Positions 4,607 through 62,529 of a stretch of DNA of 64,000 nt are shown here, one piece after another (position 1 is the stretch's first letter; every line of letters starts with the position of its first letter). Below the pieces are notes generated by a model. It was not told the DNA's origin. It did no database searches and saw only the letters and a list, made by a program, of their open reading frames with translations. The position numbers and the translations under genes are program-made. This DNA is from Ostreococcus lucimarinus (Eukaryota): assembly GCA_000092065.1 (NCBI GenBank), contig CP000584.1. One strand, 5' to 3'.

Positions 4607-4960
4607 CGCGCGCGGCGCGACGCACCGACGCGCGCGCGATGTGACGCGCGCGAGCGACGCGCGGGACTTCGCGACGCGATGCACCGACGGCGCGCGAGCA
4701 ACTGTCGCATCGTCGTCCCGGGCGCGGACGACGACGCGCGCGAACGCGACGCCGATGACGCCGGCGACGTCGGCGGCGGCGGCGGCGGCGCGCGCGGTGA
4801 GGGAGGCGAACACATGTGCGTGCGCGGGAGACGATGACTTTTCGAGACGACGACGACGACGACGACGGAAGAACGGCGGAAGCGCGCGCGAGAGACGAAC
4901 GACTGACCCAACGCGCGCGCGCGCGCGTCGTCGCGCAGCACGGGGTCGGGGACGCTCACG

Positions 4961-9979: not shown

Positions 9980-10654
9980 TCACCCCATCGTCTCGCGCGG
10001 CGCGCCGTCGGCGGCGCGCGCGTACAACTTTTGCGTTTCGTCGAGGGCGACGTGCGCGAAGCAATAACTCACGCACGGCATCGACCGCGCCTCGCACGAA
10101 GGTTCCTGACACACCGACGTCGTCCCTTCGAGCGCGCGCGCGGCCTCGGCCTCCTCCGCGGCGTCGCGCGATCCCCCGTGTCCGCGTCGTAACTCAAACC
10201 TTCGATGCTTCTTGCGCAACTCCTCGAGCAGGCGCCAATACTGATCCCTATACATCGACCGAAGCTCGCGCATGCGCTTCAACCGTCGCTCGACGAGCGC
10301 TCGCTGCGTCGTGTTCCCGTCGTCGTCGTCGTCGGCATCGTCGCCGTCCGCACCGACCGACTCGCGTCTCGCGTCGTCGTCGTCGTCGTCGTCGTCGAGC
10401 GCGTCGTCGAGCGCGTCGTCGTCGAAGCCGAGCGCCGCGCGAAACTTGGCGCGAAGCGCGACGTCGCGATCGACGACGTTCGCGCGCGTTCCGTTCGTCG
10501 TCGTCGTCTCGTCCGCGCGCGTCGTCGTCGCCGCGTCCGCGCCGCCGTCGCGCGTCGCGCCTTCGCCGCCCAATCCTCGTCCTTTCCCGTCCTCGTTCGC
10601 GTCGCTCGCCGCGCGCGCGCCTCCCCGCGCCCCTCCCGCGTCGCGCATGTTCAC
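9980..10654 (-). CDS. small acidic protein with C-terminal Cys motif resembling zf-C3Hc3H of INO80D/KANSL2
   Basis: C-terminal half has protein-like composition (...YRDQYWRLLEELRKKHRRF...CQEPSCEARSMPCVSYCFAHV...). It lies antisense to the junk N-terminus of the 884-aa plus ORF. Confidence 0.4.
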   Translation of the reverse strand: MNMRDAGGARGGARAASDANEDGKGRGLGGEGATRDGGADAATTTRADETTTTNGTRANVVDRDVALRAKFRAALGFDDDALDDALDDDDDDDDARRESVGADGDDADDDDDGNTTQRALVERRLKRMRELRSMYRDQYWRLLEELRKKHRRFELRRGHGGSRDAAEEAEAARALEGTTSVCQEPSCEARSMPCVSYCFAHVALDETQKLYARAADGAPRETMG

Positions 10655-10734
10655 CCGCGGTCCGATCGCGCGCGGTTTCGTCGCGCGCGGTCGCGCGCGC
10701 CGCGCAGTGCGTCGTCACACGTCGACGCGCCGCG

Positions 10735-12420
10735 ATGCGATGCCGACGCGCCGTCGCGCCGTCCGAGCCGCTCGCGGCGCGCGCGCGGCCTCGCGACGCG
10801 CGGCGCGCGGCCCGGCGACGCGCGACGCGCGCGCGCGCGTCGTCGACCGCGGTCGATCTCGATCGCGCGCTCGAGCGCGCGCGAGACGCGGTGAACGCGA
10901 ATGAGAATTTGGCGTACGGTTTGTGGGGACACGGGAAGCACCTCGGATTGCCCGCGAAATGGTACCTGCGCGTGGACGACGACGGGTTCGTGGAGGAGAC
11001 GATGAACGCGGAGCTGTGCTACGTGAGCGGACGAGCGAAAGGGCGCGCGGGTGGGTGCTGGGAGGTTGATTTCAGTGGGTACGCGCAGGCGCTGGAGCTG
11101 GACGACGCGGAGGCGTCGACGATGAGCGCGTGGACGCGAAGCGGATACTGGGCCACGCAGGAGTGCGTGAACGAACACTTAGAGCTGACGCTTCGTGACC
11201 GCACGGAAGAGGACGCGCGCGATGGGGTGGTGAGGATGGGGATGAAACTTCGCGGCGGGCGAGTGACGAGCGAGTTGACGCTCGACGCGACGGCGTGGAC
11301 GCCGAAGAAGCTCGCGGTGGCGGTGTGCGGTGACGAGGACTTGTGGACGTTCGATGATTGGACGACGAGTGCGTGCGGGGTGACGTACGCGCGAACGACG
11401 AAGCTGTACGGGGCGAACGGTGGGGTGCAGGAATTCATCGCCGACGGCGTCGCGTGGGGGCGCGGGAAGGAGGGGCGTAAGATTTTTGAGAAACCGACGA
11501 TCGCGACGCCGACGGTGACGGTCGATCCCGATTCGAGTTCGGAGGTGCCGGTCATTCGAGCGTCGTCGTCGCACGTGTTGGTTGAGCCGTTAATCGATGG
11601 TAAGAGCGCGGGACCGTTTATATTAGACACGGGCGCGAGCGGTTTAGTCATCACGCCAAAAGCCGCGAAAACGCTCGGTCTTCGCGCGTTCGGCGAAGTG
11701 CACGTCTCCGGGGTCTCCGGGCGCGTACCTTGTCAGTTTCGTCGGGGGAACAAACTCAAGCTCGGGCCACTGACGCTGCAGAAGCCGCTGTTCATGGAGA
11801 TGGGATTGGACGGCATCGTGAGCGGGGCGTCGAAACCCATCGCCGGAATAATCGGATTCGATGCCTTCAAAAGTGCAATTTTGAGTGTCTCGGAAGGAGG
11901 CGAGCGTGTTAATATTTACGACTCGAGGCAACTGAGTGCGATCGATGAGGACTGGGCGTGGCAGGAACTTCGACTCGTGTCCAACGTGCCGCACGTGGCC
12001 GCGACGTTCTCTGGCGTCAACGATGCGCACAAAACCGAACCAAACATTTTCATGATTGATAGTGGTGCAGGCGGCGCGGACGTGATTTTTCATTCCAAAG
12101 CGGTTGATGAGCTCGGTTTGAGCGATCTTCTCGACTCCGAAGGCAGAAGAGTTTCCAGTCGCGTGCGAGGCGTGAGCGGCGCTAACGGCGAGAGTGGCGG
12201 CGCCACGCTGACGTACCGTACGACGATGGAATGGCTGCAACTCGTCAGCGCCGATGCCAAGGGTGAGTGCGTGCGTTTTGAAAACATCGACACTTTATTA
12301 GCTTCGGGAGAGGGTTTCAGTCTCTCCGAGCACAGTTGTGGGATGATTTGCGCGAGATTATTAGGTAAGAAAACGATCGTCTACGACGTGCCTCGCCGGC
12401 GCATCGCCTTCATTGAATGA
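10735..12420 (+). CDS. single-chain tandem retropepsin-like aspartic peptidase (two D[TS]GA motifs) with organellar-like presequence
   Basis: ATG at 10735 followed by an R/A-rich presequence. Motifs ILDTGASGLVITPKAAKTLGL and FMIDSGAGGADVIFHSKAVDELGL lie about 145 aa apart. The 884-aa track ORF upstream of 10735 is rejected as coding. Confidence 0.5.
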   Translation: MRCRRAVAPSEPLAARARPRDARRAARRRATRARASSTAVDLDRALERARDAVNANENLAYGLWGHGKHLGLPAKWYLRVDDDGFVEETMNAELCYVSGRAKGRAGGCWEVDFSGYAQALELDDAEASTMSAWTRSGYWATQECVNEHLELTLRDRTEEDARDGVVRMGMKLRGGRVTSELTLDATAWTPKKLAVAVCGDEDLWTFDDWTTSACGVTYARTTKLYGANGGVQEFIADGVAWGRGKEGRKIFEKPTIATPTVTVDPDSSSEVPVIRASSSHVLVEPLIDGKSAGPFILDTGASGLVITPKAAKTLGLRAFGEVHVSGVSGRVPCQFRRGNKLKLGPLTLQKPLFMEMGLDGIVSGASKPIAGIIGFDAFKSAILSVSEGGERVNIYDSRQLSAIDEDWAWQELRLVSNVPHVAATFSGVNDAHKTEPNIFMIDSGAGGADVIFHSKAVDELGLSDLLDSEGRRVSSRVRGVSGANGESGGATLTYRTTMEWLQLVSADAKGECVRFENIDTLLASGEGFSLSEHSCGMICARLLGKKTIVYDVPRRRIAFIE

Positions 12421-12457: not shown

Positions 12458-13837
12458 TTAGACTTCAGGCACTTGCGGAAGATGCATTATCTTATCAACC
12501 GCCGTTTTCGCGTCCATGTGCCCGTCCAAGATGCTCGCCACCGCGGTGAGCACGGGCAAGTGCACTCGGTATCTCTTCGCTAATTGTACGACGGCAGCCG
12601 CCGTCGCGACACCCTCAGCCACTTGGTTCATGGACCCTAACACTTCTTCCAAGGTCTCGCCAGAGCCTAATCTCACACCAACTGTGCGGTTTCGGCTCAA
12701 GTTGACGAAACACGTGAGCATGATATCGCCGGTACCGCTCACGCCCGCGAGCGTCTCCGGTCGGGCGCCCATCTTCCCGGCGAGCCAGCGAATCTCAGCC
12801 ACGCCCTGCGCCACGAGCGCAGCCATGGCGTTGTTGCCGAGCTCCAACCCTTCGACAATACCCGCCGCGATCGCCAAGACATTCTTCATCGCGCCCGAAA
12901 GCTCGACACCGGTCACATCGGTGCTCGTGTTCACTCGAAGACACGACGACCCGAAGAGCTGTTGCACGCTTATCGCCAAACTTTCATCCTCGCTCGCGGC
13001 GACTATGGTCGTGGGCAACCCTTGCATCAGCTCCACCGCGAACGTCGGTCCAGAAAGCACCGCGAGCGGCTGATCGCGTCCCAATCCAGAGGGAATGATT
13101 TCGCTCATCATATCGCACGTCCCCGTCTCCAATCCTTTACTCAAGCACAGCATCGGCGTCTTGGGATCGATGTAATCCTTCACCCCCGCCAAAAACTTCC
13201 GCGATTGTTGCACCGGAACGGCGTGAATGATAAAGTCGCACCCCGCCAGCGCCTCCTTCGCGTCCGTGGACGCCCGTATGTTCACCGGCAGCGAGTACTT
13301 TGGCAAATACTTTACGTTTCTATGCTCCTCGTTCAACGCCCTCGCGTCGTCTTCGTTCCGCATCAATATCACGACGTCCAAATCCGCCTTATTCCTCGCC
13401 AACAGCGTCGCCATCGCCGTTCCAAAGCTCCCACCGCCCATGATCGCCACCTTCTTCGAGCTCTGCAGCACGCTCTCGTCGTTCGCGTGCGCGCTCTCCA
13501 CGAACGCCGCCCAGCGCATGATTTTATCCCACTCCGAGCCGATCGCCGCGCGATCCGCCTCGCTCACGCCCGCGCGGAACGCGTCGTACGCGCTCGCCGC
13601 CGTCGTCGTCCCGCGTCGCCGCGCCGCGCGCGCGTTCGCGCGCTCGCGCGTCGTCGTCGCCGTCGCCGTCGCGGATAGCGCGCGTCCCGCGCTCGTCGCC
13701 GTCGTCGTCGCGCGCGTCCTCGCGCGTCGCCGCGCCGGCGCGTCGCGTCGTCGCGCGCGTCCTCGCGCGTCCTCGCGCGTCGCCGCGCGCGCGCCGGCGC
13801 TCGAGCGCGTCGCCGTCGCCGTCGCCATGGTCGTCAC
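12458..13837 (-). CDS. NAD(P)+-dependent glycerol-3-phosphate dehydrogenase (GpsA-type), plastid-targeted
   Basis: KVAIMGGGSFGTAMATLLARNK NAD-binding motif and conserved GPDH core (LSGPTFAVEL, GLELGNNAMAALV). T/A/R-rich transit peptide. Confidence 0.85.
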   Translation of the reverse strand: MTTMATATATRSSAGARAATREDARGRARRRDAPARRRARTRATTTATSAGRALSATATATTTRERANARAARRRGTTTAASAYDAFRAGVSEADRAAIGSEWDKIMRWAAFVESAHANDESVLQSSKKVAIMGGGSFGTAMATLLARNKADLDVVILMRNEDDARALNEEHRNVKYLPKYSLPVNIRASTDAKEALAGCDFIIHAVPVQQSRKFLAGVKDYIDPKTPMLCLSKGLETGTCDMMSEIIPSGLGRDQPLAVLSGPTFAVELMQGLPTTIVAASEDESLAISVQQLFGSSCLRVNTSTDVTGVELSGAMKNVLAIAAGIVEGLELGNNAMAALVAQGVAEIRWLAGKMGARPETLAGVSGTGDIMLTCFVNLSRNRTVGVRLGSGETLEEVLGSMNQVAEGVATAAAVVQLAKRYRVHLPVLTAVASILDGHMDAKTAVDKIMHLPQVPEV

Positions 13838-13917
13838 GCGGTCGGTCGTCGCGCAGTGCCGCGACCGCGGTTCAAATTCGCGCGCGTCGTCGCCCGCACG
13901 GCGCGACGCACGCGCCC

Positions 13918-16284
13918 ATGCGCGCCGCGAACGCCGCCGCGCGGTCCCACGGATCGTGGACGACGCGCGCGCGACGCGACGCGCGCTCCAGCGCCGGAGG
14001 CGCGACGACGCGACGCGCGCGAGTCGCGATGCCGCGACCGCCAGCGCTGGCGACGACGACGACGACGCGCGAGGGACGCGCGACGCGCGACGCGACGCGG
14101 ACGAACGCGGTCGACAGCGCGAAGAGCGTCGACGTCGACGCGACGACGACGCGGGACGGCGCGGAGGCGATCGCGCGGGACGAGGGACTGCGAGGACACG
14201 AGGAACACTTGAAGTATCGGTACGCGACGTATCGAGCGCGGCGAGAGGCGATCGAAAGCGCGGAGGGATCGCTGGATGCGTTTTCGAAATCGTACGAAAA
14301 GTACGGGTTTAACGCGGATGAAAAGAGCGGGGAGATCACGTACCGGGAGTGGGCGCCGGCGGCGGCGCACTGCGCGTTGATCGGGGACTTTAACGGGTGG
14401 AACGGCGAGGCGACGGCGATGACGCGGGACGAGTACGGAACGTGGGAGGTGAAGCTGCCGAAGGGAGCGATCGAGCACGGATCTCGGGTGAAGGTGAGGA
14501 TTTTTACCGGGGATGGCGCGCAGATCGATCGCGTGCCGGCGTGGGTGCGCCGGGCGACGGTCGAGGAGGGAGTGATGGGCGCCGGATACGACGGCGTCTA
14601 CTGGGCGCCCGAGGAAAAGTACGAGTTCAAACACGCGGCGCCGAAAAAGCCGCAGGCGTCGCGAATTTACGAAGCGCACGTTGGGATGAGCTCGAACGAT
14701 GCCAAGGTGAACTCTTACCGCGAGTTCGCCGATGATGTTTTGCCGAGAATCGCCGCCGGTGGGTACAACACCGTGCAACTCATGGCGGTGATGGAGCACG
14801 CGTACTACGGATCCTTCGGCTACCACGTCACGAGTCCGTTCGCGGTGTCGTCGCGAAGCGGGACGCCTGAAGACTTGAAGTACTTGGTCGACAAGGCGCA
14901 CGGCTTGGGCGTGCGCGTGTTGCTCGATATCGTGCACTCGCACGCGTCGAGCAACGTCAATGACGGCATCGCCGGATTTGATTTCGGACAACGCGCCGAG
15001 GATTCGTACTTCGGTCAAGGCGAGGCTGGCTATCACTGGTTGTGGGACTCTCGCCTGTACAAGTACGACAACTGGGAAGTGTTGCGGTATTTGCTCTCGA
15101 ACTTACGCTACTGGGTCGACGAGTACAAATTGGACGGCTTCCGATTCGACGGCGTCACGTCGATGCTGTACCATCACCACGGATTACAAATGGAATTTTC
15201 CGGTGATTACGAACAATACTTTTCTACCGCCACGAACGTCGACGGTGTTGTGTACTTGATGCTCGCGAACGAGATGCTTCACTCGTTGTACCCTGAAATT
15301 GAAGTCATCGCGGAGGACGTGAGCGGCATGCCCACGTTGTGCTTGCCCGTCAACGAAGGCGGCGTCGGTTTCGACGCTCGTTTGGCCATGTCCATCCCCG
15401 ACTTTTGGGTGAAGTATCTGAAAGAACGCCCCGATGAGCAATGGAGCATGTTCGAAATGGTGAGCACGCTGTGCAACCGCCGTTACACCGAGAAGGCCAT
15501 CGCGTACGTCGAGTCGCACGATCAATCCATCGTCGGCGACAAGACGACGGCGTTTTGGTTGATGGATGCGGAAATGTACTCTGGTATGTCCACTTTGAAC
15601 GAACCATCCATCGTGATCCAACGCGGCATCGCGCTTCACAAGATGATGCGTCTCGTCACCGCTTCTCTCGGCGGTGAGGGCTACCTTACCTTCATGGGCA
15701 ACGAGTTCGGGCATCCCGAGTGGGTGGATTTCCCGCGCGAAGGCAACAACTGGAGCCACGACTACTGCCGCCGACGCTGGGACTTGGCCGACGCCGACCA
15801 CTTGCGTTACCAACACCTTCTCAAGTTCGACAAAGCCATGCTCGCGCTGGACAACGATTACCCGTACATGGGTGCCGCCCACCAACACGTGAGCACCGCC
15901 GACGACGGTCGCCAGATCCTCGTCTTCGAGCGCGGCGACCTCCTCTTCGTCTTCAACTTCCATCCCACGAACACGTACGAAGGGCTCGAGATCGGCGTCC
16001 CCGAGCAAGGCAAATACCGTCTCGCTCTCGATACCGACGCCGGTGAATTCGGCGGCGCCTCCCGATGCGGTTTCGGCGTCGATCACTTCACCTCGCCCGA
16101 GCCCGTCGAGAGCTGGGTCGGCCCGTACGAGCAAACGCCTCGCGCGGCGAAGATGTTCGTCTTATCGCCCAGTCGCAGCGCTCAGGTGTACTACCGCGTG
16201 CACGAGCACACGCCCGTATCTTCCGAGCCATCGACCGAGGATATCGTGCGCGAGAACGACGCCTCCGCCTCCAACGCGCGTTAG
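13918..16284 (+). CDS. SBE: 1,4-alpha-glucan (starch) branching enzyme
   Basis: GH13 branching-enzyme motifs YREWAPAA, DGFRFDGVTSMLYHHHG, FMGNEFGHPEW, HDQSIVGDKT. Transit peptide present. Confidence 0.9.
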   Translation: MRAANAAARSHGSWTTRARRDARSSAGGATTRRARVAMPRPPALATTTTTREGRATRDATRTNAVDSAKSVDVDATTTRDGAEAIARDEGLRGHEEHLKYRYATYRARREAIESAEGSLDAFSKSYEKYGFNADEKSGEITYREWAPAAAHCALIGDFNGWNGEATAMTRDEYGTWEVKLPKGAIEHGSRVKVRIFTGDGAQIDRVPAWVRRATVEEGVMGAGYDGVYWAPEEKYEFKHAAPKKPQASRIYEAHVGMSSNDAKVNSYREFADDVLPRIAAGGYNTVQLMAVMEHAYYGSFGYHVTSPFAVSSRSGTPEDLKYLVDKAHGLGVRVLLDIVHSHASSNVNDGIAGFDFGQRAEDSYFGQGEAGYHWLWDSRLYKYDNWEVLRYLLSNLRYWVDEYKLDGFRFDGVTSMLYHHHGLQMEFSGDYEQYFSTATNVDGVVYLMLANEMLHSLYPEIEVIAEDVSGMPTLCLPVNEGGVGFDARLAMSIPDFWVKYLKERPDEQWSMFEMVSTLCNRRYTEKAIAYVESHDQSIVGDKTTAFWLMDAEMYSGMSTLNEPSIVIQRGIALHKMMRLVTASLGGEGYLTFMGNEFGHPEWVDFPREGNNWSHDYCRRRWDLADADHLRYQHLLKFDKAMLALDNDYPYMGAAHQHVSTADDGRQILVFERGDLLFVFNFHPTNTYEGLEIGVPEQGKYRLALDTDAGEFGGASRCGFGVDHFTSPEPVESWVGPYEQTPRAAKMFVLSPSRSAQVYYRVHEHTPVSSEPSTEDIVRENDASASNAR

Positions 16285-21279: not shown

Positions 21280-21915
21280 TCACCTCGCCGCGTCTCGAGC
21301 GGCGACTTGTCGCGCGATGAAATCGGCGTTGATCTCCCGGCACAGCGCCTCCTCGCACCCCACCGCGACTTCGATTCCGGCGTCCAGCAGCGTCTGAATC
21401 CCTCCGCCAGAGACGCGCGGATCCGGATCGATGAATCCCACGACGACGCGCGCCACGCCCGCGTCCACGAGCGCGCGCGCGCACGGCGGCGTCCGTCCGT
21501 AGTGATTACACGGTTCGAGCGTCACGTACGCCGTCGCCCCTCTCGCGAGTTCTCCCGCCGCGCGCAGCGCGAACACCTCGGCGTGCGGTTCGCCCGCTTT
21601 CGGGTGATATCCCTCGCCGACGACGACGTCCTCGCGCGCGTCCACCACGACGCACCCGACGCGCGGATTCGGAAACGTCTCCGCCGTCGTCGCCGTCGCC
21701 GCGACTTCCAGCGCGCGCCGCATGTGCGCCTCGTCTTTCGCGTCCGTCGCGGACGTCGTCGTCGGCGCGACGTCCCCGCTCGAGCTCCCGCGCCGCGCGC
21801 GTCTCGGTCGCCGCGTCGTCGCGTCGCGGCGTTTCGTCGACGCCGCGCGCCGCGCGTCGCGCGCCCCGCACGCGCGCGCGCCGACGCGCGCGCGCGCGAC
21901 CGTCGCGGTCGCCAT
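21280..21915 (-). CDS. riboflavin-biosynthesis RibD-type deaminase (CMP/dCMP deaminase fold), plastid-targeted
   Basis: Zinc-binding HAEV...PCNHYGRTPPC motifs and RVGCVVVD...GEGYH. Confidence 0.75.
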   Translation of the reverse strand: MATATVARARVGARACGARDARRAASTKRRDATTRRPRRARRGSSSGDVAPTTTSATDAKDEAHMRRALEVAATATTAETFPNPRVGCVVVDAREDVVVGEGYHPKAGEPHAEVFALRAAGELARGATAYVTLEPCNHYGRTPPCARALVDAGVARVVVGFIDPDPRVSGGGIQTLLDAGIEVAVGCEEALCREINADFIARQVAARDAAR

Positions 21916-22001
21916 CGCCGCCGTCTCGCGCCGCGCCGCGTCCTCGCGCGCGCGTCTGCGGCGGCGGCACTTCGCGACGCGACGGCGACCGCGCGACCGC
22001 G

Positions 22002-22676: not shown

Positions 22677-25600
22677 TTAGGGCTGCGGGCGCGCTTGGAC
22701 GATGCAAATTTCCCCAGAGGGAAGGATGCAGCCTTCGACGTCTTGCGGGAGCGTCTCGCCGCGCGGACTCAACTCGCGCTCGAGCTCAGAGCCGATGGCG
22801 AGAAGTTTGGTGGCGATTTCGTCGCGCTTCGCGACGTCGTTGTGAAGCCAGTGGGATGCGTAATCCGCGGCGACAGATTTCATTCCGGTTGCCGAGTCGT
22901 CATCGCGGACGAGGGCGGTTCCGAACGAGGCGAACGCATTCACCGTCGCTTTGCCGGATCGCTTGTCGACGCTCACGCGGCAGGGCGATCCTCGAACCGC
23001 GCCCGACGCCAAAGTCTCGCCCAAACCGAGCGCAAACTCGACGTACGCTTCGTTATTATCATTTGTGAGCGGGTGCTTCGTGTGTAGAACGAAACTGACC
23101 TCGGGCGAGAGCATCTCTTGGACGAGGACGCACATGTGCGCCTCGAGTTGATCGACGCCGGCGGCGGCGCGAGAAGCCACGGCGCGAGTGGTGTACAGGG
23201 ACGCCCATACCTCGCCAACAGCGCGACTGAATGCGTCTTCCGAGTTCGGGTCGACATTTGGGATGGAATCGTACAAACCAGCCGCGGACATCCCCTCGAG
23301 ATCTTCAACGTTGGCGCTACTTCGAACCATGACGCGCGCATTCGGGCCAAACTTTTCAGCGACGGATTGCAGCGCGCTCGCGGACGGCTTGAGCGAACGA
23401 ACGAGGTTCTGGATGGCTTCGCACGTGTGTCGCATCCTCACTGGGTCGTCCGCGTACTGGTTGAGTTCGAGGAGCAAACTGTCGAGATGTTCGAGCTTGC
23501 TGATGCTCGCGCACGCGAATTCCATTGCGCCGAATGGAATGACGACACCGGCGGGCGCGGCGAACGCCGCCGATCCAGAAGAGTTTTCGGCGATAGTGCT
23601 CAATCGTGCGCACATAGCGGACTTCGTACCGGCGATGCGAATCGACTTTTCGAGTCCACGCTTGTCCAGCGCGACGAGATCGAACACGGTTCCCGCTCTT
23701 GAGAGATCAGTGTCGAGGCGGATCACGGGTTTCGTCGCCTGTGGCCCCGCTTCGCTTGAAGCAGCCGCAACAGACGCCGGAGCCGTCGTTGGCTCGAGCT
23801 TAATTCCAGTGGTTTCCGCACTGAGCTTCACGGCAGGTTCATTCGCCAAAGAACGCGCGTAGTCGACAAGCTTGTCGTCTTCGACGGCGATGAGGGGCAC
23901 TTTGGCTTGACGCGCGCGAAGCGCCAAATGACTGAGATGCGGCAACGCGTGACACAGCACCACGCCGCGCACGTTCGGGCCGCACGTCGACACTTCTTCA
24001 TCACCATCAGCACTAGCAACGAGCACGATTACTGGCTCGGTGAACTGCGCGCACTCTTCGGGCGTGAGCCTTTCGACGCACTTGAGCGCGCCGATAGCCT
24101 CGCCTTGCACGACGCAATCCCATCCAGCGGCGCCGGTGATTTGCCGGCTGACTCGCAGCAACAAGGAAGCGATCTTGGCGGATTGGAACACTACGCTCGC
24201 GCGAATCTGACCTTCTGTGAACACACTGATTGAGCCGTGGTCAATACCGAGCGCATTGCCGAGACTCGACGCCCGTCCATCGAATAAAGATTCCAACAGC
24301 GAACAAAAGTCGACGGCGCCGCGTCGAGCGCGTTCGGCGACGGCTTGGACGCGCAAACCGCCTTCCTCGCCCGCGGGCAAACCATTACGAGCCAGTGCTT
24401 CGGCTTCGGACGCGATTGCCTCTAGCTCGTTATCGCCTCCTGCACTCAGCGCCATGGTGCGAGAAGTCAAAGCCAGCGCCTCAAGAGTGAGTTTTACTTC
24501 GCTCGCGCTGATGTCGTTTCGCGGCGGCTCAGACTCTGCGCCGAGCGCGTTGAGCAATCGGCTCAACAACACGAACGCGTAATCTTCCATGCTCACCTCG
24601 GCCAAGCGCCACTGTTGACGCGTCGATGATTCAGCTTGACCCAAATCCCCGCCCGATTCCAAGGCGGCGGTGATGTCCGTTCGCGCGTCGTGAATAGCAC
24701 GCAAGCACGCGACGAGCGCGCTCATAGTCGTTTGATCGCCCACGCGGTCGCTCGCAGGAAGCGCATCCACGGTCGCCTTCGCAGAGAGAAACTTCTTTGA
24801 GCTATCGGCCGCACGGCCAGGGGCGCCATTTTCGTTCGCGATACGATCGATGCGATCGGCCACAGAGGAGGCGTTGAAGAATTCCTTGAGCTCGCGATAG
24901 AAAATCTTAAACTCGTTGACAAACTCTTCGGGGTAGTCGGTTCCCGGAGCGGTGAGTTTGGCGAGCATAGATTCCGTCGCAACTAGATCCTCGGGACCAG
25001 CGCAGCGATGGAGTTTGTTCTGAATCGTGTGCTTGATTTCTTGTCGAACTTCGCGACATTTCCCATGTTGATCACCCTTGCCGTGCGCGATGTCGCGAAT
25101 GCGCGTCAGCGGCACGCTTTGCGTGAACTCGGCGGTGAACGCGGGGAGTCGTGGATGCAGACGGCGAATCAACGCACGAAGCTCACGCGCGCGGTAAATA
25201 TCACCACCACTCGCAACATCGTTCGCGAAACGTTCCGCAGCCTCGATTGCGCCGTACATACGTTCAGCCGAACCGGCGTGGTGGTTTGGACGGTAGTGCG
25301 TACCGTCCTCGACGCACGCGATGGCGCCGACAGATATCCAAAATAAATACACAGTAGCGTACGCCAAAGAGTCAACGTCGGCGCCGTCATCGCAAATTAG
25401 CTTCTCAACCATTTGCAGTTTCTGTCTCCATGAAGAAGAGTCGCGATCGCCCTCGACGATACGGCGCGCGGCGTCGGCGAGATTATCCGTGTTCCACTGA
25501 AGGTTACGTTCGCCGCCGCCGCCTTTGTGCGTTTGTAATTTCACTTCTTGACCGCGCCACTGGTTCAGCGCCGCGAAACTCGTGTCTTCGGTGACTTTGA

Positions 25601-26687
25601 TCGGTTCGACTTGCGGTGGCGGTGGCGGTGGCGGCGGCGGCGGCGGCGACGGCGCTTCCGCGCTCGGCACCTCCCGACGCCGCTCGGGCGTTTCTCTGCG
25701 CTCTTGACGCGACGGCGAATCGACCGCACCGATCGCGCCCGAAAGATCAAACACCAAATCTCTCCCATCGTGCTTGTACCACACCTTGCAATCTTGCGTG
25801 CGAATCAAGCACACGACCGACGCCACGTCACCGTCGCGCGGTTCGACGGCCAGCTCGACGATTTGCTCGCCGCTCCCGTCGTCCCGAAACCCCGACTCGC
25901 ACGACTTCCCATCCGGCGCGCGCGAATTCATCGGCACCGCTCGCAGCGCATCATACGGCGACCACCATTCGCCGCCGGCGCGCGACTGCACCCCCCAGTG
26001 TAGCAACAAGTTCCTCGAATCGCTTCCGCGAGCGTCCACCTCGCTCGTCCGCAGCGTCAGCGTCGCCCCCCCGCCCGCGCGCGCCTTCACCGCGTACGCC
26101 AACCTCGCCGTCGCGCCTTCGCTCGACCGCAGCTCCATCGTTTCCCACGCCTTTCCGTCTCGTCCCTCGCCCGCCCGTCGCGTCGAATCACCGACCGACC
26201 GTTCGCGCGTCGTCGACGCGCCGCCGTCTCGCGCCGCGTTCAAACCGTTCAAACCGTCCGCTCGCCGCACCTCCGCCGCGAGCGCCTCCAGCGTCGCGCG
26301 CGCGTCGTCCGCGCGGAACGGGTCCTTGACGCCGCGCGCGACGCACCCCGCGCGTCCGCGCGCGCCCGTCGTCGCGCCCGTCGTCGTCGTCGCGCGTCGT
26401 CGTCGTCGCGCCAGCGCTGGCGTCGTCGTCGCGTCGCTCGCGCGCGCGCCTCGCGCGTCGCGATGCGCGCGCGCGCCGCCGAGTCGCGCGCGCGCGGGCG
26501 CGGCGCGCGTCGTCGCGCGCATCGCGCTCGACGCGCGCGCTCGCGCCCGTCGCGCGTCGCGATGTCGCGCCGGCGCGGCCGACGCCACATCGCGACGCGT
26601 CGAGCGCCGACCGACGCGCGCGACGCCGACGCGCGACGGCGCGAACGCGGCGACGCGCGACGCGCGACGCGCTCCTGTCGTCGCCAT
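22677..26687 (-). CDS. GWD: alpha-glucan water dikinase (GWD/R1; starch phosphorylation), plastid-targeted
   Basis: C-terminal PEP-utilising/PPDK-type nucleotide-binding domain (VMVRSSANVEDLEGMSAAGLYDS). N-terminal starch-binding repeats (LHWGVQSRAGGEWWSPY). Start chosen at the ATG at 26687..26685 (MATTGARRASR...). Further upstream is antisense of UTP4. Confidence 0.85.
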   Translation of the reverse strand: MATTGARRASRVAAFAPSRVGVARVGRRSTRRDVASAAPARHRDARRARARASSAMRATTRAAPARARLGGARAHRDARGARASDATTTPALARRRRRATTTTGATTGARGRAGCVARGVKDPFRADDARATLEALAAEVRRADGLNGLNAARDGGASTTRERSVGDSTRRAGEGRDGKAWETMELRSSEGATARLAYAVKARAGGGATLTLRTSEVDARGSDSRNLLLHWGVQSRAGGEWWSPYDALRAVPMNSRAPDGKSCESGFRDDGSGEQIVELAVEPRDGDVASVVCLIRTQDCKVWYKHDGRDLVFDLSGAIGAVDSPSRQERRETPERRREVPSAEAPSPPPPPPPPPPPQVEPIKVTEDTSFAALNQWRGQEVKLQTHKGGGGERNLQWNTDNLADAARRIVEGDRDSSSWRQKLQMVEKLICDDGADVDSLAYATVYLFWISVGAIACVEDGTHYRPNHHAGSAERMYGAIEAAERFANDVASGGDIYRARELRALIRRLHPRLPAFTAEFTQSVPLTRIRDIAHGKGDQHGKCREVRQEIKHTIQNKLHRCAGPEDLVATESMLAKLTAPGTDYPEEFVNEFKIFYRELKEFFNASSVADRIDRIANENGAPGRAADSSKKFLSAKATVDALPASDRVGDQTTMSALVACLRAIHDARTDITAALESGGDLGQAESSTRQQWRLAEVSMEDYAFVLLSRLLNALGAESEPPRNDISASEVKLTLEALALTSRTMALSAGGDNELEAIASEAEALARNGLPAGEEGGLRVQAVAERARRGAVDFCSLLESLFDGRASSLGNALGIDHGSISVFTEGQIRASVVFQSAKIASLLLRVSRQITGAAGWDCVVQGEAIGALKCVERLTPEECAQFTEPVIVLVASADGDEEVSTCGPNVRGVVLCHALPHLSHLALRARQAKVPLIAVEDDKLVDYARSLANEPAVKLSAETTGIKLEPTTAPASVAAASSEAGPQATKPVIRLDTDLSRAGTVFDLVALDKRGLEKSIRIAGTKSAMCARLSTIAENSSGSAAFAAPAGVVIPFGAMEFACASISKLEHLDSLLLELNQYADDPVRMRHTCEAIQNLVRSLKPSASALQSVAEKFGPNARVMVRSSANVEDLEGMSAAGLYDSIPNVDPNSEDAFSRAVGEVWASLYTTRAVASRAAAGVDQLEAHMCVLVQEMLSPEVSFVLHTKHPLTNDNNEAYVEFALGLGETLASGAVRGSPCRVSVDKRSGKATVNAFASFGTALVRDDDSATGMKSVAADYASHWLHNDVAKRDEIATKLLAIGSELERELSPRGETLPQDVEGCILPSGEICIVQARPQP

Positions 26688-29109
26688 GCTCGAGCTCCAC
26701 CGCGGGCGCTTCGTGGAGTGGACGCCGAGCGCGGTGACGGCGCTCGCGGTCGCGCCCGGCGGCGCCCTCGTCGCGTGCGCGCGCGAGAGCGGCGCGATCG
26801 AGGCGTACGACGGCGAGTGGCGGTGCGTCGCGCGCGTCCCGGGAAGCGCGGACGCGGCGACGAGCGCGCTGGCGTGGTGCGAGGCGTTCGCGGACGACGA
26901 CGGGGCGACGACGCGGGACGAGGAGGCGGCGGCGGCGGCGACGAAAAAAGAGGAACGACGACGCGAACGACGACGACGAGGAGGCGCGGACGCGCGAAGA
27001 GCGACGCTGCTGAGCGCCTCGCTCGATGGACGCGTTCGGGCGTGGGATCTGGCGACGGGACGGACGACGAGCGAGACGGACAGCCGAGGAGGGGCGATTT
27101 GGGCGATGGAGGCGCAGCCGAGGACGCGGACGAGAAGAGGCGACGCGCAGCTCGTGGCGATCGCGTGCGACGATGGGTGCGCGAGAGTGCTGACGATGGT
27201 GGCGGGGAAAGACGTGGGAAGCGGGTTGGCGCATAAACGGGCGTTTCTGCGAGTGCAGGGTCGATTGCTGAGCCTGGCGTGGCACCCGAGCGAACCGCTG
27301 TTGGCGTGCGGGTCGTCGAGAGGCGCGGCGCACGTCATGGATTGCGTCAATTACAACGAGCTGATGCGCGTGTCGGTGTGTAATATTCCTCACGGGGCGC
27401 ATGGGATACTGAACGCCGGAGATGAGCACTGCGTGTGGGCGCTCAAGTATCTTCCGGACGGGACGCTCGTGACTGGGGATTCGGATGGCGCGGTGACGTT
27501 TTGGGACGGGAAGTTTTCCACCGAGTTGGTGCGATACCAGCAGCACAAGGCTGACGTGCTCGCGCTTGCGACGACTCCGAGTGGGAACAAAGTGTTCGCC
27601 TCGGGTGTGGATTCGCAAGTGGCGGAGTTTGAAAAGCTCGACGAGCACTTGGACAAGGAGGAGGGATACAATCAGTGGACGTACACGACGAGTAAACGAC
27701 CGCACACGCACGACGTGCGCGCGCTCGCCATGCTGACGACGGGCGCGGACGACGAGGACGGTATATTAATTTCGGGTGGTAACGACGCGCAACTCTTAGC
27801 GTACAATGCGGGGTCGTTTAGGAAGCAGCATCCGGTGCGCGTCGTGAGCGTGCCGCAGCGAACGCCGATTTCCATCACGAGCGTTGGGGGACCGAATCCG
27901 CCGCTTCTTCTCGCAGAGCACGCAAAATGGTTAGACATTTGGCGCATTGGTGAAAGTCGCAAGCGCGCGGATAAAAAAGAAGGCACGATGAAGCTCGCTT
28001 CGGCACCGGCGCACGTGTTGCGTGCCGAGCTTGCGGGGACGCGGCACATTTTATGCTCGGCTATTTCACCAAATGGTAAAATGATCGCGGTAAGCGACGT
28101 TCACAGCCTGAGACTGTTCGATATCCAATCACCAAAAGAAGGCGACGACGACTTGACGTGGTCGATTCGTCGTCAAGAACCCCCAGCGGGCGTGACTTCG
28201 GCTCAACTTCTCGCGTTTGCGCCCGATGGAAAGCACCTCACCGCCGTGTCGAATTCGGGCGCCGTGTACGTCATAGACCTCGAGGACTGGGTGGTTTCGA
28301 ACGTCCTCAAGTCGCACTTGCCAAAGCAAAGCGCCGCGGCCGAGGCTCTCGCGGAGGCGGTGCGTCAATCGAGTCAAGGCGTGGAAACGGTTACCGCAAA
28401 CGACATCGCGGTTCCCGTGGTGAGTCACCTGAGAGTGAGTAGCGACAACCAATGGCTCGTTGTCGTCACCGCGCGCGGCGGTGATGAAGCCGAGCGCGCC
28501 GTGGATGGTTTGGCGCCATCCTTCGGTGGCGGTGTTCACGTATACAACTTCGATACGATGAAGCTTCACGTATCTTTACCTCCCCCAAAGACGCACGCGT
28601 TGTGGCCGCCGATTTCGTCCGTCGCGGTGAGCGCCGACGGTGTCTTGGCGCTCGCCGGCCCTTCCAACGCGCTCTTTACGTACGACATCGACAGCGTGAA
28701 ACCGACAAAGTGGAGCGCCGCGCTCGCCGACGCCGGCGTCGACGCTCCAACAGCACTTCGCGAGATGCCCGGCCAGATTTGCGGTTTGAGCTTTGATCCA
28801 AAGTCAAAAAAGTCAGTGTTGCTCGCGCACACGCCCACCGCCATCGCGCGGGTGGATTTGAACGCCAAAATCACCGACGACGCGACTACAACGTCCAAGA
28901 AAAAACGCAGACGCGAGCGCGAGCGTGGGGCTCCCGAAAATTACGCCACAAGCGACGCCCCCGGAGGCGTTCGCGTCGTTAAACTCGACAACCCGTGCTT
29001 GTATTTGGGTTACGCCGGCGTGAACAAGGCACTTTTGATCGAGCGTCCGTGGGCCGACGTACTCAAGTCCTTGGCGCAGCCGTTGTACAGGCATAGATTC
29101 GGCACCTAA
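26686..29109 (+). CDS. UTP4: U3 snoRNP protein UTP4/Cirhin (WD40 repeat)
   Basis: MLELHRGRFVEWTPSAVTALAVAPGGALVACARESGAIEAYD matches the Cirhin N-terminus (MGEFKVHRVRFFNYVPSG...). The C-terminus ends ...LYRHRFGT, like Cirhin ...KKKKFGT. The track ORF upstream of 26686 is antisense of GWD. Confidence 0.8.
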   Translation: MLELHRGRFVEWTPSAVTALAVAPGGALVACARESGAIEAYDGEWRCVARVPGSADAATSALAWCEAFADDDGATTRDEEAAAAATKKEERRRERRRRGGADARRATLLSASLDGRVRAWDLATGRTTSETDSRGGAIWAMEAQPRTRTRRGDAQLVAIACDDGCARVLTMVAGKDVGSGLAHKRAFLRVQGRLLSLAWHPSEPLLACGSSRGAAHVMDCVNYNELMRVSVCNIPHGAHGILNAGDEHCVWALKYLPDGTLVTGDSDGAVTFWDGKFSTELVRYQQHKADVLALATTPSGNKVFASGVDSQVAEFEKLDEHLDKEEGYNQWTYTTSKRPHTHDVRALAMLTTGADDEDGILISGGNDAQLLAYNAGSFRKQHPVRVVSVPQRTPISITSVGGPNPPLLLAEHAKWLDIWRIGESRKRADKKEGTMKLASAPAHVLRAELAGTRHILCSAISPNGKMIAVSDVHSLRLFDIQSPKEGDDDLTWSIRRQEPPAGVTSAQLLAFAPDGKHLTAVSNSGAVYVIDLEDWVVSNVLKSHLPKQSAAAEALAEAVRQSSQGVETVTANDIAVPVVSHLRVSSDNQWLVVVTARGGDEAERAVDGLAPSFGGGVHVYNFDTMKLHVSLPPPKTHALWPPISSVAVSADGVLALAGPSNALFTYDIDSVKPTKWSAALADAGVDAPTALREMPGQICGLSFDPKSKKSVLLAHTPTAIARVDLNAKITDDATTTSKKKRRRERERGAPENYATSDAPGGVRVVKLDNPCLYLGYAGVNKALLIERPWADVLKSLAQPLYRHRFGT

Positions 29110-29170
29110 TCGGCCCGAAATTGTTCAATACGATGAAGTAGTCTAAAATGATGTCGGTCGATTAAAATTC

Positions 29171-30099
29171 CTATTGTTGCAAACCGAGCAACATGTTCGC
29201 GCCACCGCCCGGCAAGTACATGACGTTGCGGCTTCGCGCGAGCGTCTGCGCAATCTCCTTGCTCGCTTCGATTCGGCGCAGCTCGACGAGCGCTGGGCCG
29301 GCAGCCTTGGTCGCTTGCGAGATCAAACGCGCGGATTCGGATTCACCCTCGGCGCGAATAATCGCAGCCTCTCGCTCTTGCTCGGACCGCTTCACGACGT
29401 AGGCCGCGCGTTCCGCTTCCTGTTGACTCACTTGCTTTGCTTCGATCGCCTTGGTGTACTCGGAGGAGAAGCTCAAGTGCGTCAGCGCGACGTCGTCTAA
29501 GATGATGCCGAAATCAGCCGCTCGCAGTCGCAAAGCCTCGCTGACTCGCTGACTCACCAATTGACGCTGCGTCAGCAACTGATCCGCGTTGAACTGCGCC
29601 ACGGTCGCCTTCAAAACTTCGTTCCCGATCGACGGCAACACCCGATCATCGTAGTCTTGCCCGAGCTCTTGATGAATCTTCGGCAGCTTGTCCACGTCCG
29701 GTCTGCACAGCACCCGCAGCGTCAAGTTCACCTGCTGCAAATCCTTCGTCCCCGTCACCGACGTCAGCGACTTCGCTCGCGTGCGCACGTCGTAAATCGT
29801 CGGGTTCTGAATGAACGGCACCACGAAGTGCGTGCCCTCGCCCGACGTCACCGGAAGCACCCCTCTGAAGCGGTCGAACATGACCGCGCGTTCGCCCCCG
29901 TCCACTGCGTACGATTACGCCCCGCGCGCGCGTCTCGTCAGTCTTCGCGCGCCTTCGCGCCGCGCGGGCGGTCGTATCATTTACGCGCCGCGCGTCAATC
30001 GCCTTCGCGTCGCGTCGCGTCGCGTCGACGACGCGCGCTCGTCGACGATTCGCGTCACCAACCCTCGATCGAGGCGTCGTCGCGTGCGTTCGCCGTCGT

Positions 30100-30132
<33 letters not shown>

Positions 30133-30236
30133 CGTCGCGCACCGTCGTAGATGGCCTGCGACGCCACGGAGGCGCCGACGCCGATCGTCACCGCCGCGCG
30201 GGCGAGATTCGTGAGCGCGTTCGCGGCGGCGCTCAT
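29171..30236 (-). CDS. PHB: prohibitin; complement(join(29171..29904,30143..30236))
   Basis: Exon 2 DGGERAVMFDRFRGV...PGGGANMLLGLQQ is prohibitin. Exon 1 MSAAANALTNLARAAVTIGVGASVASQAIYD supplies the TM anchor. The intron is phase 1 with donor GTGCGC, a (GCGTC)n tract, a gactgac branch and acceptor cag. The junction reads ...AIYDVDGGERAVMF, cf. ALYNVDAGHRAVIF. Confidence 0.85.
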
Positions 30237-30549
30237 GGATTCCGGAGCGACGCGACGCGATGTGACGACGACCACTTCGCGGCGCGTCGCGCGGCGCGCG
30301 CGCGCGCGGATGGGCGAGCGCGCGAGTCAGTGGGAACACCAAGCGCAGTTCGCGGGCGAGCTGTTCGTCGGGACGAGCGCGCTGGTGGGGGGATTCTTGA
30401 CGTTCATGTATTGTCACCTGCGAGCGCAAAAGCGTCGCCGCGACCGCGAGCGGTTGCTGTCGCGACAGCAGGAGGCGTTGTTGTAATAGATGAAGAAATT
30501 TGTGTTTGCTTATTAACGCGGCGAATGTTCGGGGACGATCGCGCGTGGA

Positions 30550-37474: not shown

Positions 37475-38167
37475 TCACAACGCGCGTAATTTATCCATGA
37501 TGGTCGGCTCGGGCGCGGGTAATAAATCGCGCGCCTCGTACAGACGCGATAAAATCCTGTCGCGCACCTCCGCGCTCATCTCCGCCGTGGCGCCGTTCTT
37601 CTTGTAAAACGCGCTCAACTCGCGCAGCGCCTCGGCGATGTCGGCGTACGACGCGCTCGAGGACGCCGACGCGCTCCCTCCGCCGCCATCGTACGATATG
37701 TACGCCTTCACCGCCTCCTTGGCCGGTTTCGCGAATTTATACCGCTCTCCCGGGGATTTATTCGCGTTTCGCGCCTCGTGCTCGAGCGACGTCGACAGCG
37801 CGTCGACGAGCTCGCGCGCGACTCTCGCGTAGTCCCTCGGGACGTCCTCCAGCGCGTTCGCCGCGTCCGTCGCCGTCGAGCACGCCCCCGCCGCGAGCGC
37901 GATCGCGTTCGTCGCGAAGAACGTTCGACGTCGCACGTCGCGCGCGTCCGCGCCGCCCGCGCCGTCGTCGTCGCGCGCCGTCGTCGACGTCGCGTCGTCG
38001 CCGCGCACCAGCCCGAGCGCCTCGCAGCGGAAGATTTCCCCGACGCACGGCGTCACGCGCACGAGATTCGCCCTCGAGCGCGGGTCGCACGCGCGCGCGG
38101 ACGCATCGCGTCGCGTCGCGCGCGTCGGCGTCGTCGCGCGCGTCGGCGTCGTCGCGCGCGTCGGCAT
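37475..38167 (-). CDS. PSB27: Psb27-like photosystem II assembly/repair protein with transit peptide plus twin-arginine (TAT) lumenal signal; alternative upstream ATG at 38479
   Basis: RRTFFATNAIALAAGAC is a TAT motif. The C-terminus ...YADIAEALRELSAFYKKNGATAEMSAEVRDRILSRLYEAR resembles Psb27 (NALAGHYNSFGATAPIPKKRLERLLQEL). Confidence 0.6.
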   Translation of the reverse strand: MPTRATTPTRATTPTRATRRDASARACDPRSRANLVRVTPCVGEIFRCEALGLVRGDDATSTTARDDDGAGGADARDVRRRTFFATNAIALAAGACSTATDAANALEDVPRDYARVARELVDALSTSLEHEARNANKSPGERYKFAKPAKEAVKAYISYDGGGGSASASSSASYADIAEALRELSAFYKKNGATAEMSAEVRDRILSRLYEARDLLPAPEPTIMDKLRAL

Positions 38168-38270
38168 CGCGCGTCGGCGTGTGCCGACCAACGGTCTCGT
38201 CGCGCGGCGCGCGCGCGGCCCGCACACGACGACGCGCGTCGCGTCGAGCCGCGTCGAGTCGCGCCGACGG

Positions 38271-38891
38271 ATGGCGACGCCGCGGACGCCGGCGCGCGCG
38301 CGCGCGACGGCGCGCGCGCGCGTCGACGCGCGCCGAGCGACGCGCGCGCGCGCGCGCGGGGAGAGTGCGCGCGCGGCGACGTCGGAAAACGCCGGCGCGC
38401 GCGTCGCGCTCGTCGCCGGCGCGCTCGCGGTGTCGCTGGCGCGCGACGTCGACGTCGCGAGGGCGTTCGTCGGCGACATCGCGCTCGACGACGTGCGGTA
38501 CGAGGCGATGGAGAGGTGTCCGGAGAATCAGTACGTGCCAAACAAACAGAAGACGACGTGCCTGCGGTTCACCGCGCGAGCGACGAATGCGGTGAAAGGA
38601 CGGACGATCGAGAGCGCGAACGTGTTTGGGTTCGTGGAAGACGCGCAAGGGAACAGCGCGGCGACGGTGAACGCGGATGGGAATTCGAGGACGGTGTTGG
38701 CGAGCATCGACGCGCCGATACCGAAGGGCGAGTCCGACGTGCACTTCGTCGTCACGGTGTTCAAGGACTCGTTGGAGAATAATGGGCCGTTGAGATTGAA
38801 AGCGTTCAAGGCGGTGGGATCGGTGGCGGATATCGATAAGCGGTTCACGCCGTTCGACGCGTGCGAGGTCGATCCGGACTCGTGTCTTTGA
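38271..38891 (+). CDS. hypothetical protein with plastid-type transit peptide
   Basis: High GC3 with normal composition (ERCPENQYVPNKQKTTCLRF...KAFKAVGSVADIDKRFTPFDACEVDPDSCL). Start set at the ATG at 38271; the track ORF starts at 38181. Confidence 0.5.
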   Translation: MATPRTPARARATARARVDARRATRARARGESARAATSENAGARVALVAGALAVSLARDVDVARAFVGDIALDDVRYEAMERCPENQYVPNKQKTTCLRFTARATNAVKGRTIESANVFGFVEDAQGNSAATVNADGNSRTVLASIDAPIPKGESDVHFVVTVFKDSLENNGPLRLKAFKAVGSVADIDKRFTPFDACEVDPDSCL

Positions 38892-41174: not shown

Positions 41175-41912
41175 TTAAATACCGACGGCTTTTAAGACGT
41201 CGGCGATCTCGGGATGCGCACCCGGGAGCGCGTCGGCCCAAGCGTATTCGACGTCGTCGCCGGCTAAAACGAACGTGCCGCCGAGACGCAACACACCCTC
41301 TGGAACGCCCTTTTGACCCTTCTTGATCGGCGCCAACTTCCCCGCGTTCCCGAGATACGCCAACCAATCCTTGAACGAAAAGTTCGTCGGCTTCAAATCC
41401 ACCTTCTCCGGCTTGGCGTCGGTAAATTTCCCGAATCCGCACGCGTCGTACAGCGCGAAATCGTCGCTATCGTCGACGAACGCGATGTCGCTCGGAATCT
41501 CCGGATTCAACTCCAAAAACGTCCTCAACTGCTCCGCCGTCCCGAGACTCACGAGCGTCACGCTCCCGCCCGCCGCCTCGATCCGTCCTCGACTGTCCGC
41601 CACGCTCCGCGCGTAGCTCCAACAAAACAGTCACGCGAGGTGACGAAGCACGACGACGACGTTCGGCGCGCCCGACGTCGCGCGTCCGAGCGGCGCGCGC
41701 GTCCCGTCGGCGCCGACGATCTCGCACGCGCGCAGCGCGGCCGCGGAGACGCTCGCGCCGTTGATGGTCGCCGTTCGCGCGCCGACGTCGTCGTCGACCG
41801 CGCACGCGATCTCGCCGCAGTCGAGCGCGCGCGGCGCGACGCGGCGCGCGGCGCGCGCGCGACGCGCGGCGACCGGCGCGGGCGCGACGGTCGGCGCGCG
41901 CGCGGCGCGCAT
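41175..41912 (-). CDS. SELU: selenoprotein U (SelU/PRXL2 family, AhpC/TSA thioredoxin-like) with in-frame TGA, candidate Sec codon, at 41631..41633
   Basis: Track ORFs 41631..41912 and 41175..41603 are in the same frame, separated only by the TGA at 41633..41631. Read-through gives ...APNVVVVLRHLA-U-LFCWSYARSVADSRGRIEAAGGSVTLVSLGTAEQLRTFLE...LGGTFVLAGDDVEYAWADALPGAHPEIADVLKAVGI. This is collinear with PRXL2B ...[40 protein letters not shown]...GGLLVVSKGGDKVLLHFVQ..., with the TGA at the first Cys of CxxC. Confidence 0.7.
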
Positions 41913-41995
41913 GGCGTCGCTCGAGCGTCGCGATGTGACTCGCGCGCGGTGCGCGGTCGCGCGTCAGACGCGCGCGCGGCGCGACGGCGGCGACG

Positions 41996-42868
41996 ATGCC
42001 GGCGCGCGCGCGCGGGGCGACGCTCGCGTACGACGTCCCGAGGCTTCGCCTGGACGCCGCGACGCGCGCGGAGGTGGACGCGCTCCTGCGACGACGCGCG
42101 CCGTTGATTTTGGTGGATGACGACGCGCGCGCGCGCGTGCCGCGGTGGACGACGGAGACGCTCGCGCGCGCGGCGAGTCGCGACGCCGTCCCGCTCGAGC
42201 GCACGGGCGCGAACGAACGCGCGTGCGTCTTGACGGAGTATCTCAAGTTTGAAGACGAAGAGACGCGCGGGATGTACATGCGAAACTTGCACCTGTCGCG
42301 GTACTTTCCGAAGCTCGCCGAGGAGATTCGGTTGCCGGAGGATTTGTTCGGCGAGAACGCGCTGGCGGACGAGACGAAAACGCCGAACGCGCCCGCCGTC
42401 TGGCGGAATTGGTTCGAGCTGTTCGTGTGTCACGCGAAGCACTGCGCCGGGTTTCCTTTTTTACATCGCGATTCGTGCTGCGTGCACGCGGCGTCGTATC
42501 AAATTCTCGGTCGCAAGCGCTTCACGCTGTTCGCGCCGAGCGAAGGTCCGCGACTGTACCAATCCGGCGGCACTGGGAATCGTTCGATGATCGAAGACAT
42601 CGACGCCCCGGACGTCTTCGAGCGATATCCAGAGTTTCGACGCGCCCGCCGCTTAACGGTGGACGTCTCGGAGGGGGAAATATTAGTCGTGCCGTCGATG
42701 TGGTGGCACACCGCTTCGCCGCTCCCGTGCGAAGCCTCGGACGACGTCTGCGTCAGCGTCGCCGCGTCCTTCGTCGATGATTCCGTGTACGAAAACTTCT
42801 TAGACGCGCACGCGGAGTTTCAGGCGATGCAAAGCCTCGTCGCCGCCGGCGCGGCGAAGATGTTGTAG
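41996..42868 (+). CDS. JmjC-domain (cupin-8) protein
   Basis: WRNWFELFVCHAKHCAGFPFLHRDSCCVHAASYQILGRKRFTLFAPS...VVPSMWWHTA is the JmjC double-stranded beta-helix with the HxD...H iron ligands. Confidence 0.65.
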   Translation: MPARARGATLAYDVPRLRLDAATRAEVDALLRRRAPLILVDDDARARVPRWTTETLARAASRDAVPLERTGANERACVLTEYLKFEDEETRGMYMRNLHLSRYFPKLAEEIRLPEDLFGENALADETKTPNAPAVWRNWFELFVCHAKHCAGFPFLHRDSCCVHAASYQILGRKRFTLFAPSEGPRLYQSGGTGNRSMIEDIDAPDVFERYPEFRRARRLTVDVSEGEILVVPSMWWHTASPLPCEASDDVCVSVAASFVDDSVYENFLDAHAEFQAMQSLVAAGAAKML

Positions 42869-55440: not shown

Positions 55441-55624
55441 CGCGCGGCGGAGTGTCGCCGTCGCGTCTCGCCCCGCAGACGGCGACGCGATGGCGACCGC
55501 GGACGCGCGCGTCGACGCGTCGAGCGACGCCGACGCCGACGCCGACGCCGATGCGTCGTCGCCGACGCCGACGGCGCGCCGCCGCGACGGCGCGCCGCCG
55601 ACGCGACGCGCGCGGCGCGACGCG

Positions 55625-61991: not shown

Positions 61992-62529
61992 GCCCGCGCG
62001 CCTCGCGTTGACCGACGCCGCCGCGCCGCCGCGCGTCGGCGCCTCGCCCGCGCCTCCACCGCCGCCGTCAGCGACCTCGACGTCGCATCCGCGCGCCGAC
62101 GCGTCGCGCGATGCCGACGCGCGACGCGACGCCGCGCGTCGTCGATGTCGCGTCCGTCGCGTCGGATCTCGGTCGCCCCGTCGATGGGTCGCGACTCGAC
62201 GAGAGTCTCACACTACGCGCCTCGTCCCATCATCCACGCGCGCGATCGCGGCGCGGCGATCGCGCGCGTCGGCGAATCGAAACGCGCGATCTCGACGTCG
62301 TCAGCCAATCGAAACGCGCCGTGGGTCTCCGGTGATCGCGCGAAAGATCGCGCGAAAAAGCGCTCGCCGCGAAAAAGCGCGCGCGCGACGCGCTTTTTCG
62401 CGCGACGCGTCGCGCGCGCGAGACGGCGACGCGCGACGACACGCGAAGCGCGCGGGCGCGATCGAAGGGAACGGGCGTTTAGGGAACGCGCGCGAACGGA
62501 CGGACGGACGCGCGGACGGACGGCGGACG

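Follow-up and report, generated by a model that had tools for sequence, protein, structure and literature searches.

Divergent gene pairs arranged head-to-head around short bidirectional promoters are described from the compact genomes of the Mamiellales, in Ostreococcus tauri as well as in Ostreococcus lucimarinus, and the re-annotation of the O. tauri genome reported that its RNA-seq assembly concatenated transcripts, an outcome attributed to overlapping untranslated regions (UTRs) (PMC4378021). This statement, which makes overlapping UTRs a frequent feature of O. tauri, was the only relevant one that we found in the literature on Ostreococcus transcription start sites or cap analysis of gene expression. 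A head-to-head overlap is described for the human INO80E/HIRIP3 pair (PMC11890862), and the N-terminal over-extension of open reading frames (ORFs) is a known annotation artefact of DNA with a high content of guanine and cytosine (GC). Here we examine a locus of O. lucimarinus CCE9901 that can be set beside each of these cases. Within a window of 64,000 nt (contig CP000584.1), which is the whole stretch of DNA analyzed, a gene of the glucan water dikinase family (GWD) on the minus strand and the UTP4/Cirhin gene on the plus strand appear to begin on one and the same CATG palindrome (window positions 26685–26688). A first-pass annotation of this DNA had read the palindrome as a pair of overlapping start codons with no intergenic promoter. 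Instead, we find that the locus is very likely an ordinary head-to-head pair with a shared spacer of 163 bp, in which UTP4 would be translated from ATG 26686 and the dikinase from M56, the second methionine codon of its frame.

In nothing essential does the locus differ from the head-to-head pairs of the Mamiellales. The two genes are divergent, and their spacer is short by local standards and has an unusually high level of polymorphism. Gene calls on the environmental contig L001 give ≈202–582 bp for the other divergent spacers at the locus and 61–114 bp for the convergent ones; a 163-bp spacer fits this setting, falls within the 162–582 bp of neighboring divergent pairs, and is an ordinary finding. 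The GC-rich 5′ gene ends that recur across the window are a further likeness. The human INO80E/HIRIP3 pair would be comparable if the 5′ UTRs here extended past each other to give antisense 5′ ends. The present pair is unlike it, in that its coding sequences are most likely separate from each other and an overlap of the starts does not survive a comparison of reading frames across natural populations. The locus also resembles over-extension, since stop codons are depleted at ≈80% GC and an upstream in-frame ATG supplies a plausible extension. It departs from the usual case of that artefact in that the spurious ATG is the reverse complement of the neighboring gene's true start context, which makes the arrangement look designed.

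The plus-strand gene (26686–29109) is UTP4/Cirhin, a t-UTP/UTP-A subunit of the small-subunit (SSU) processome, and its true start is ATG 26686, as had been proposed at first pass. The 807-residue protein that this ATG opens (beginning MLELHRGRFVEW) is identical to XP_001417326.1/ABO95619.1 of O. lucimarinus CCE9901, and close relatives from environmental sequence carry the annotation U3 small nucleolar RNA-associated protein 4. Its alignment to human UTP4 in the solved SSU processome (7mq8_LN; E = 5e-51) covers query residues 3–807 and chain residues 5–686 in three stretches, with residue 3 pairing with human residue 5 and the two C-termini coinciding (807 versus 686). The similarity to solved UTP4 proteins is thus full-length, and the yeast and Chaetomium Utp4 proteins were matched as well. 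Residues ≈68–106 (window ≈26887–27003) form an acidic/basic low-complexity insertion (DDDGATTRDEEAAAAATKKEERRRERRRRGG) that is without counterpart in human UTP4; the human alignment is interrupted between query residues 67 and 107, and the insertion overlaps tandem-repeat DNA.

The minus-strand gene, which diverges from UTP4 as the first-pass annotation had stated, is a member of the glucan water dikinase family. Its Pfam matches are GWD1_pHisD (PF22973, 2e-18), PPDK_N (PF01326, 7e-34), and Ig_N_CWD1 (PF23166, 5e-8), and it therefore has the phosphohistidine domain and the PPDK_N-type nucleotide-binding domain by which GWD/PWD family membership was judged. Among named proteins, those nearest to it are phosphoglucan/glucan water dikinases (entered as 'phosphoglucan, water dikinase'), and the plant PWD matches carry PF00686; the assignment is made at the level of the family (GWD/PWD) and does not separate GWD-type from PWD-type. 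The family membership given at first pass is borne out by these domains, whereas the starch-binding domains that accompanied it are not: neither CBM20 nor CBM45 gave a Pfam match at E ≤ 0.001, and the sole N-terminal domain detected was the Ig-like one of GWD1. The coding sequence most likely spans 22677–26522 and encodes 1281 residues from M56 (ATG 26522–26520), as indicated by the Pfam matches and by purifying selection that begins at this ATG; no other methionine lies between the palindrome and the conserved KDPF...ARATL motif.

The sequence facts behind the proposal of overlapping starts are correct. The minus-strand ATG at 26687–26685 (M1) overlaps the UTP4 ATG on the palindrome, opens with MATTGARRASRVAAF, and runs without a stop codon and in frame into the dikinase ORF. 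Such a frame carries no weight, because the stretch 26328–26736 is free of stop codons in all six frames and is one of 51 stretches of ≥120 nt within the window that lack a stop triplet in any frame. This stretch is 82% GC and forms part of an 80–83% GC spike; around it, the dikinase frame stays open as far as 27350, and that of UTP4 is open back to 25774. When the 162 nt of the interval were shuffled with matched composition, 66% of the shuffles remained open. In the window, C is the preceding base for ≈20% of ATGs and, with the chance of being in frame taken as 1/3, the coincidence of a CATG and a shared frame is roughly a 5–10% event per tight divergent gene pair, which is not beyond chance. 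Codon-position GC and codon log-odds did not discriminate at 81–84% GC, and the training set for part of this analysis was mis-phased; we draw no conclusion from them. On this account, the minus-strand ATG would be incidental to the C that UTP4 has at position −1, and it would look like a GWD start because extreme GC strips stop codons from every frame. The apparent extension M1–A55 (26523–26687, minus strand, including MATTGARRASRVAAFAPSR) is most likely an ORF-extension artefact and not coding sequence.

Natural variation distinguishes the two candidate GWD starts. We aligned positions 26200–26760 with 22 environmental contigs whose UTP4 is nearly identical to that of the window (few residues differ). 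Polymorphism statistics were taken from 17 near-identical short-read haplotypes, namely 16 of these contigs and the reference; the long-read contigs L018–L022, in which indels may be sequencing errors, were left out of them. With the exception of the error-laden long-read contig L020, all differences within 26230–26760 are confined to 26545–26676, a stretch that sits between the M56 ATG and the UTP4 ATG. Frameshifting indels occur there as 26573delG in L001–L003, which come from three independent studies or samples, and as 26582delA in L005. The spacer of L013 has a 10-bp insertion and a 1-bp deletion, and there are more indels in the long-read contigs; among the short-read haplotypes, spacer lengths are 162, 163, and 172 bp. 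The ATG within the palindrome is consequently out of frame with GWD in L001–L003, L005, L022, and probably L020, and in L001–L003 and L005 it leads to an unrelated product of 145 residues. The UTP4 ATG is kept throughout, whereas the ATG in the GWD direction loses its frame.

The substitutions show the same boundary. In the 163-bp interval 26523–26685 there are 17 columns with single-nucleotide polymorphisms (SNPs; 19 substitutions, 104 per kb), which make up 14 haplotypes among the 17 sequences; the dikinase and UTP4 coding sequences have 3–4 SNPs per kb. The 196 bp that encode M56–V120 (26327–26522) have no SNPs and form a single haplotype in 17, though this segment is 84% GC and also rich in CG repeats, and M56–V120 is identical in every contig of resolvable frame (all except L020). 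Read as a coding frame, M1–A55 would have undergone 11 non-synonymous and 8 synonymous substitutions, near the neutral expectation, and purifying constraint begins at M56. In natural populations, M1–A55 behaves as non-coding DNA, without coding constraint and with its frame lost in some haplotypes.

Orthologous loci, which the first-pass annotation had named as a place to look, lack the M1 extension in both related species compared, represented by contigs L023 and L024. L023 comes from a second, different Ostreococcus-like species, in which UTP4 segments are 42–78% identical to those of the window. It keeps the synteny HSP70–Band_7–UTP4–GWD as well as the MLELHRGRFVEW start and the CATG at the UTP4 start (L023 5630–5633). 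The palindrome cannot serve GWD there: the ORF that leaves it in the GWD direction does not share the GWD frame and stops after 52 codons. The L023 spacer is 367 bp long and has stops in all three frames in its less GC-rich core, and the first methionine of the GWD frame lies 42 residues before the DGPF sequence. In L024, from a third species, the upstream region is AT-rich and a methionine lies 59 residues before DGPF. The presequence of the orthologue P0017 has 33 residues, and the orthologues as a group range from 33 to 59. In the more distant relatives L025 and L026, the dikinase is not adjacent to UTP4, and these contigs are uninformative on the spacer.

Between the palindrome and the conserved N-terminal motif of the dikinases, (K/D)(D/G)PF...(D/E)(D/E)AR.TL, the GWD frame has only two methionines, M1 (26687) and M56, which would give presequences of 120 and 65 residues, respectively. 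The frameshifted haplotypes, the variability of M1–A55 with invariance from M56 onward, and the shorter presequences of the orthologues together place the GWD start most likely at M56, 165 bases further in than M1. On these grounds, the claim that GWD begins at the palindrome and leaves no intergenic promoter is set aside, and the better-supported start is a methionine that the first-pass annotation had listed as an alternative (MRATTRAAPARARLGG). The segment M56–V120 (26327–26522, minus strand) is a putative plastid transit peptide of 65 residues, rich in Ala, Arg, and Thr; its composition and length resemble those of the presequences of P0016, P0017, and P0024, which is consistent with targeting to the plastid. 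A protein search with the GWD N-terminus returned nine matches dominated by low-complexity words, and a search without the presequence recovered orthologues, none of them an O. lucimarinus entry or a close ORF derived from transcripts.

Several observations weigh against a start at M56. The Kozak-like context of M1 is the better one (AGCATGG versus GCGATGC for M56), the reference and 12 of the 16 short-read environmental contigs have M1 in frame, and the product of M1 is likewise transit-peptide-like in composition. An exact look-up of the GWD models from M1 and from M56, and of the environmental 1281-residue version, gave no match in the collection. In addition, metagenomic assemblies of 80%-GC DNA may hold errors. 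This last concern is countered because the variants recur in independent samples and the adjoining, equally GC-rich coding stretch is invariant.

With GWD running on the minus strand from 26522 and UTP4 on the plus strand from 26686, the genes form a divergent pair whose starts are well within 1 kb of each other. The non-coding 163 bp between them (26523–26685; the 165-nt segment 26523–26687 is ≈81% GC) would have to contain a short bidirectional promoter together with both 5′ UTRs. The transcription starts of both genes probably lie inside this spacer, judging from the placement of upstream ATGs and from the tolerated frameshifts: GWD mRNAs that contained the palindrome would carry, in the frameshifted haplotypes, a long upstream ORF past M56, yet these haplotypes persist. 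An out-of-frame ATG upstream of M56 (26588–26590, minus strand) would limit the 5′ UTR of GWD to ≈65 nt, provided that no upstream AUG is tolerated, and an out-of-frame ATG upstream of the UTP4 start (26562–26564, plus strand) points to a 5′ UTR of no more than ≈120 nt for UTP4. The latter ATG is brought into frame by 26573delG in L001–L003. The representative of the UTP4 protein cluster in the database, P0002 (848 residues), has a 41-residue N-terminal extension that exists only because of this haplotype (L001 6001–6123, corresponding to window 26562–26685), and its start is probably mis-called.

The spacer is also a polymorphism hotspot, which is the only curiosity of the locus. Of the 74 variable columns in an 8.4-kb alignment of the 17 haplotypes, 24 fall within these ≈150 bp, and a divergent spacer taken for comparison (29882–30083) has ≈10 SNPs per kb versus 104 per kb here. 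The spacer is made of CG-rich, imperfect tandem repeats. The hotspot could stem from slippage, CpG mutation, or recombination. At position 26639, inside the spacer, the reference strain has a G that none of the 22 environmental contigs shares, each having A or a deletion there; the G is either private to the cultured strain or an error of the reference.

Of the readings that compete with a start at M56, the one that fares best is strain-polymorphic or dual initiation, although we regard it as improbable. M56 would then serve constitutively and, wherever M1 is in frame, some transcripts would begin upstream of the palindrome, which would yield a dispensable longer presequence and antisense 5′ ends. 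The in-frame position of M1 in most haplotypes and its good context agree with such a scheme, as do the concatenated O. tauri transcripts ascribed to overlapping UTRs (PMC4378021). If initiation of this kind were common, however, the 145-codon upstream ORF that runs past M56 in the frameshifted haplotypes should block GWD translation, and yet those haplotypes were found in several independent samples; the sequence of M1–A55, moreover, is without constraint. A more specific version holds that in the reference and most wild haplotypes, in which M1 is in frame, some GWD transcripts start within the coding sequence of UTP4 and are translated from ATG 26687. The extension would be strain-polymorphic and dispensable, and the two genes would share a palindromic start, with fully antisense 5′ ends and no DNA set aside as a promoter. 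We consider this version somewhat less probable again. Some transcript overlap at this locus would not be novel, because overlapping UTRs have already been reported in O. tauri (PMC4378021).

That both ATGs of the palindrome are functional, with a 120-residue GWD presequence, no intergenic promoter, and 5′ UTRs that lie fully antisense inside the partner's coding sequence, is very unlikely. The open, in-frame M1 of the reference and of three-quarters of the short-read environmental contigs would suit this model, as would a strong initiation context (A at −3, G at +4) and an N-terminus rich in Ala, Arg, and Ser. Open frames are uninformative at 82% GC, however, and the indels of L001–L003 and L005 uncouple M1 from GWD. 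The SNP density of the segment, its roughly neutral ratio of non-synonymous to synonymous change, and the absence of the extension from the sister species L023 and L024 likewise count against the model. Least credible of all is a GWD N-terminus supplied by a separate 5′ exon elsewhere, which the first-pass annotation had raised as a possibility, or by a non-AUG start, with neither methionine used, for which we found no support: no break in the ORF separates M56 from the conserved DPF...ARATL motif and the Ig-like domain, conservation begins at M56, and the N-termini of the orthologues are collinear and unspliced, with a methionine 33–59 residues upstream of the motif.

Other features of the window concern its GC profile and its neighboring genes. 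GC spikes of 77–82% occur at ≈1–400, 4400–4800, 10400–10800, 13600–14000, 21600–22000, 26400–26800, 38000–38400, 41600–42000, 49600–50000, 55200–55600, and 62400–62800. The GC skew turns from negative to positive across each of them, and they coincide with many of the 51 six-frame stop-free stretches. In this genome, such spikes appear to be a general mark of divergent 5′ gene ends. Between Band_7 and HSP70 lies a small plus-strand ORF of 133 residues (30084–30485) whose called length is 58, 111, or 133 residues among the contigs, and 1-bp and 4-bp indels segregate in it at 30268–30272 and 30294; an intron may interrupt it, or it may be something other than a simple protein-coding ORF. Convergent pairs have only 61–63 bp between their stop codons (window 29110–29170; ICAT/GWD, L001 2053–2115; ORF133/HSP70, L001 9924–9986), and the 3′ UTRs there must be very short or must overlap, which agrees with the overlapping UTRs reported in PMC4378021.

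Had the overlap of start codons been true, it would have meant extreme genome compaction without promoter DNA. Shared start codons without a promoter are not supported at this locus; the evidence points to a normal, very short bidirectional promoter instead. The same spacer has given rise to a spurious extension on each strand, the 120-residue GWD presequence on one and the 848-residue UTP4 model on the other. At ≈80% GC, which is typical of 5′ gene ends here, open frames and transit-peptide-like translations are nearly uninformative, and start codons are better placed by conservation and population variation.

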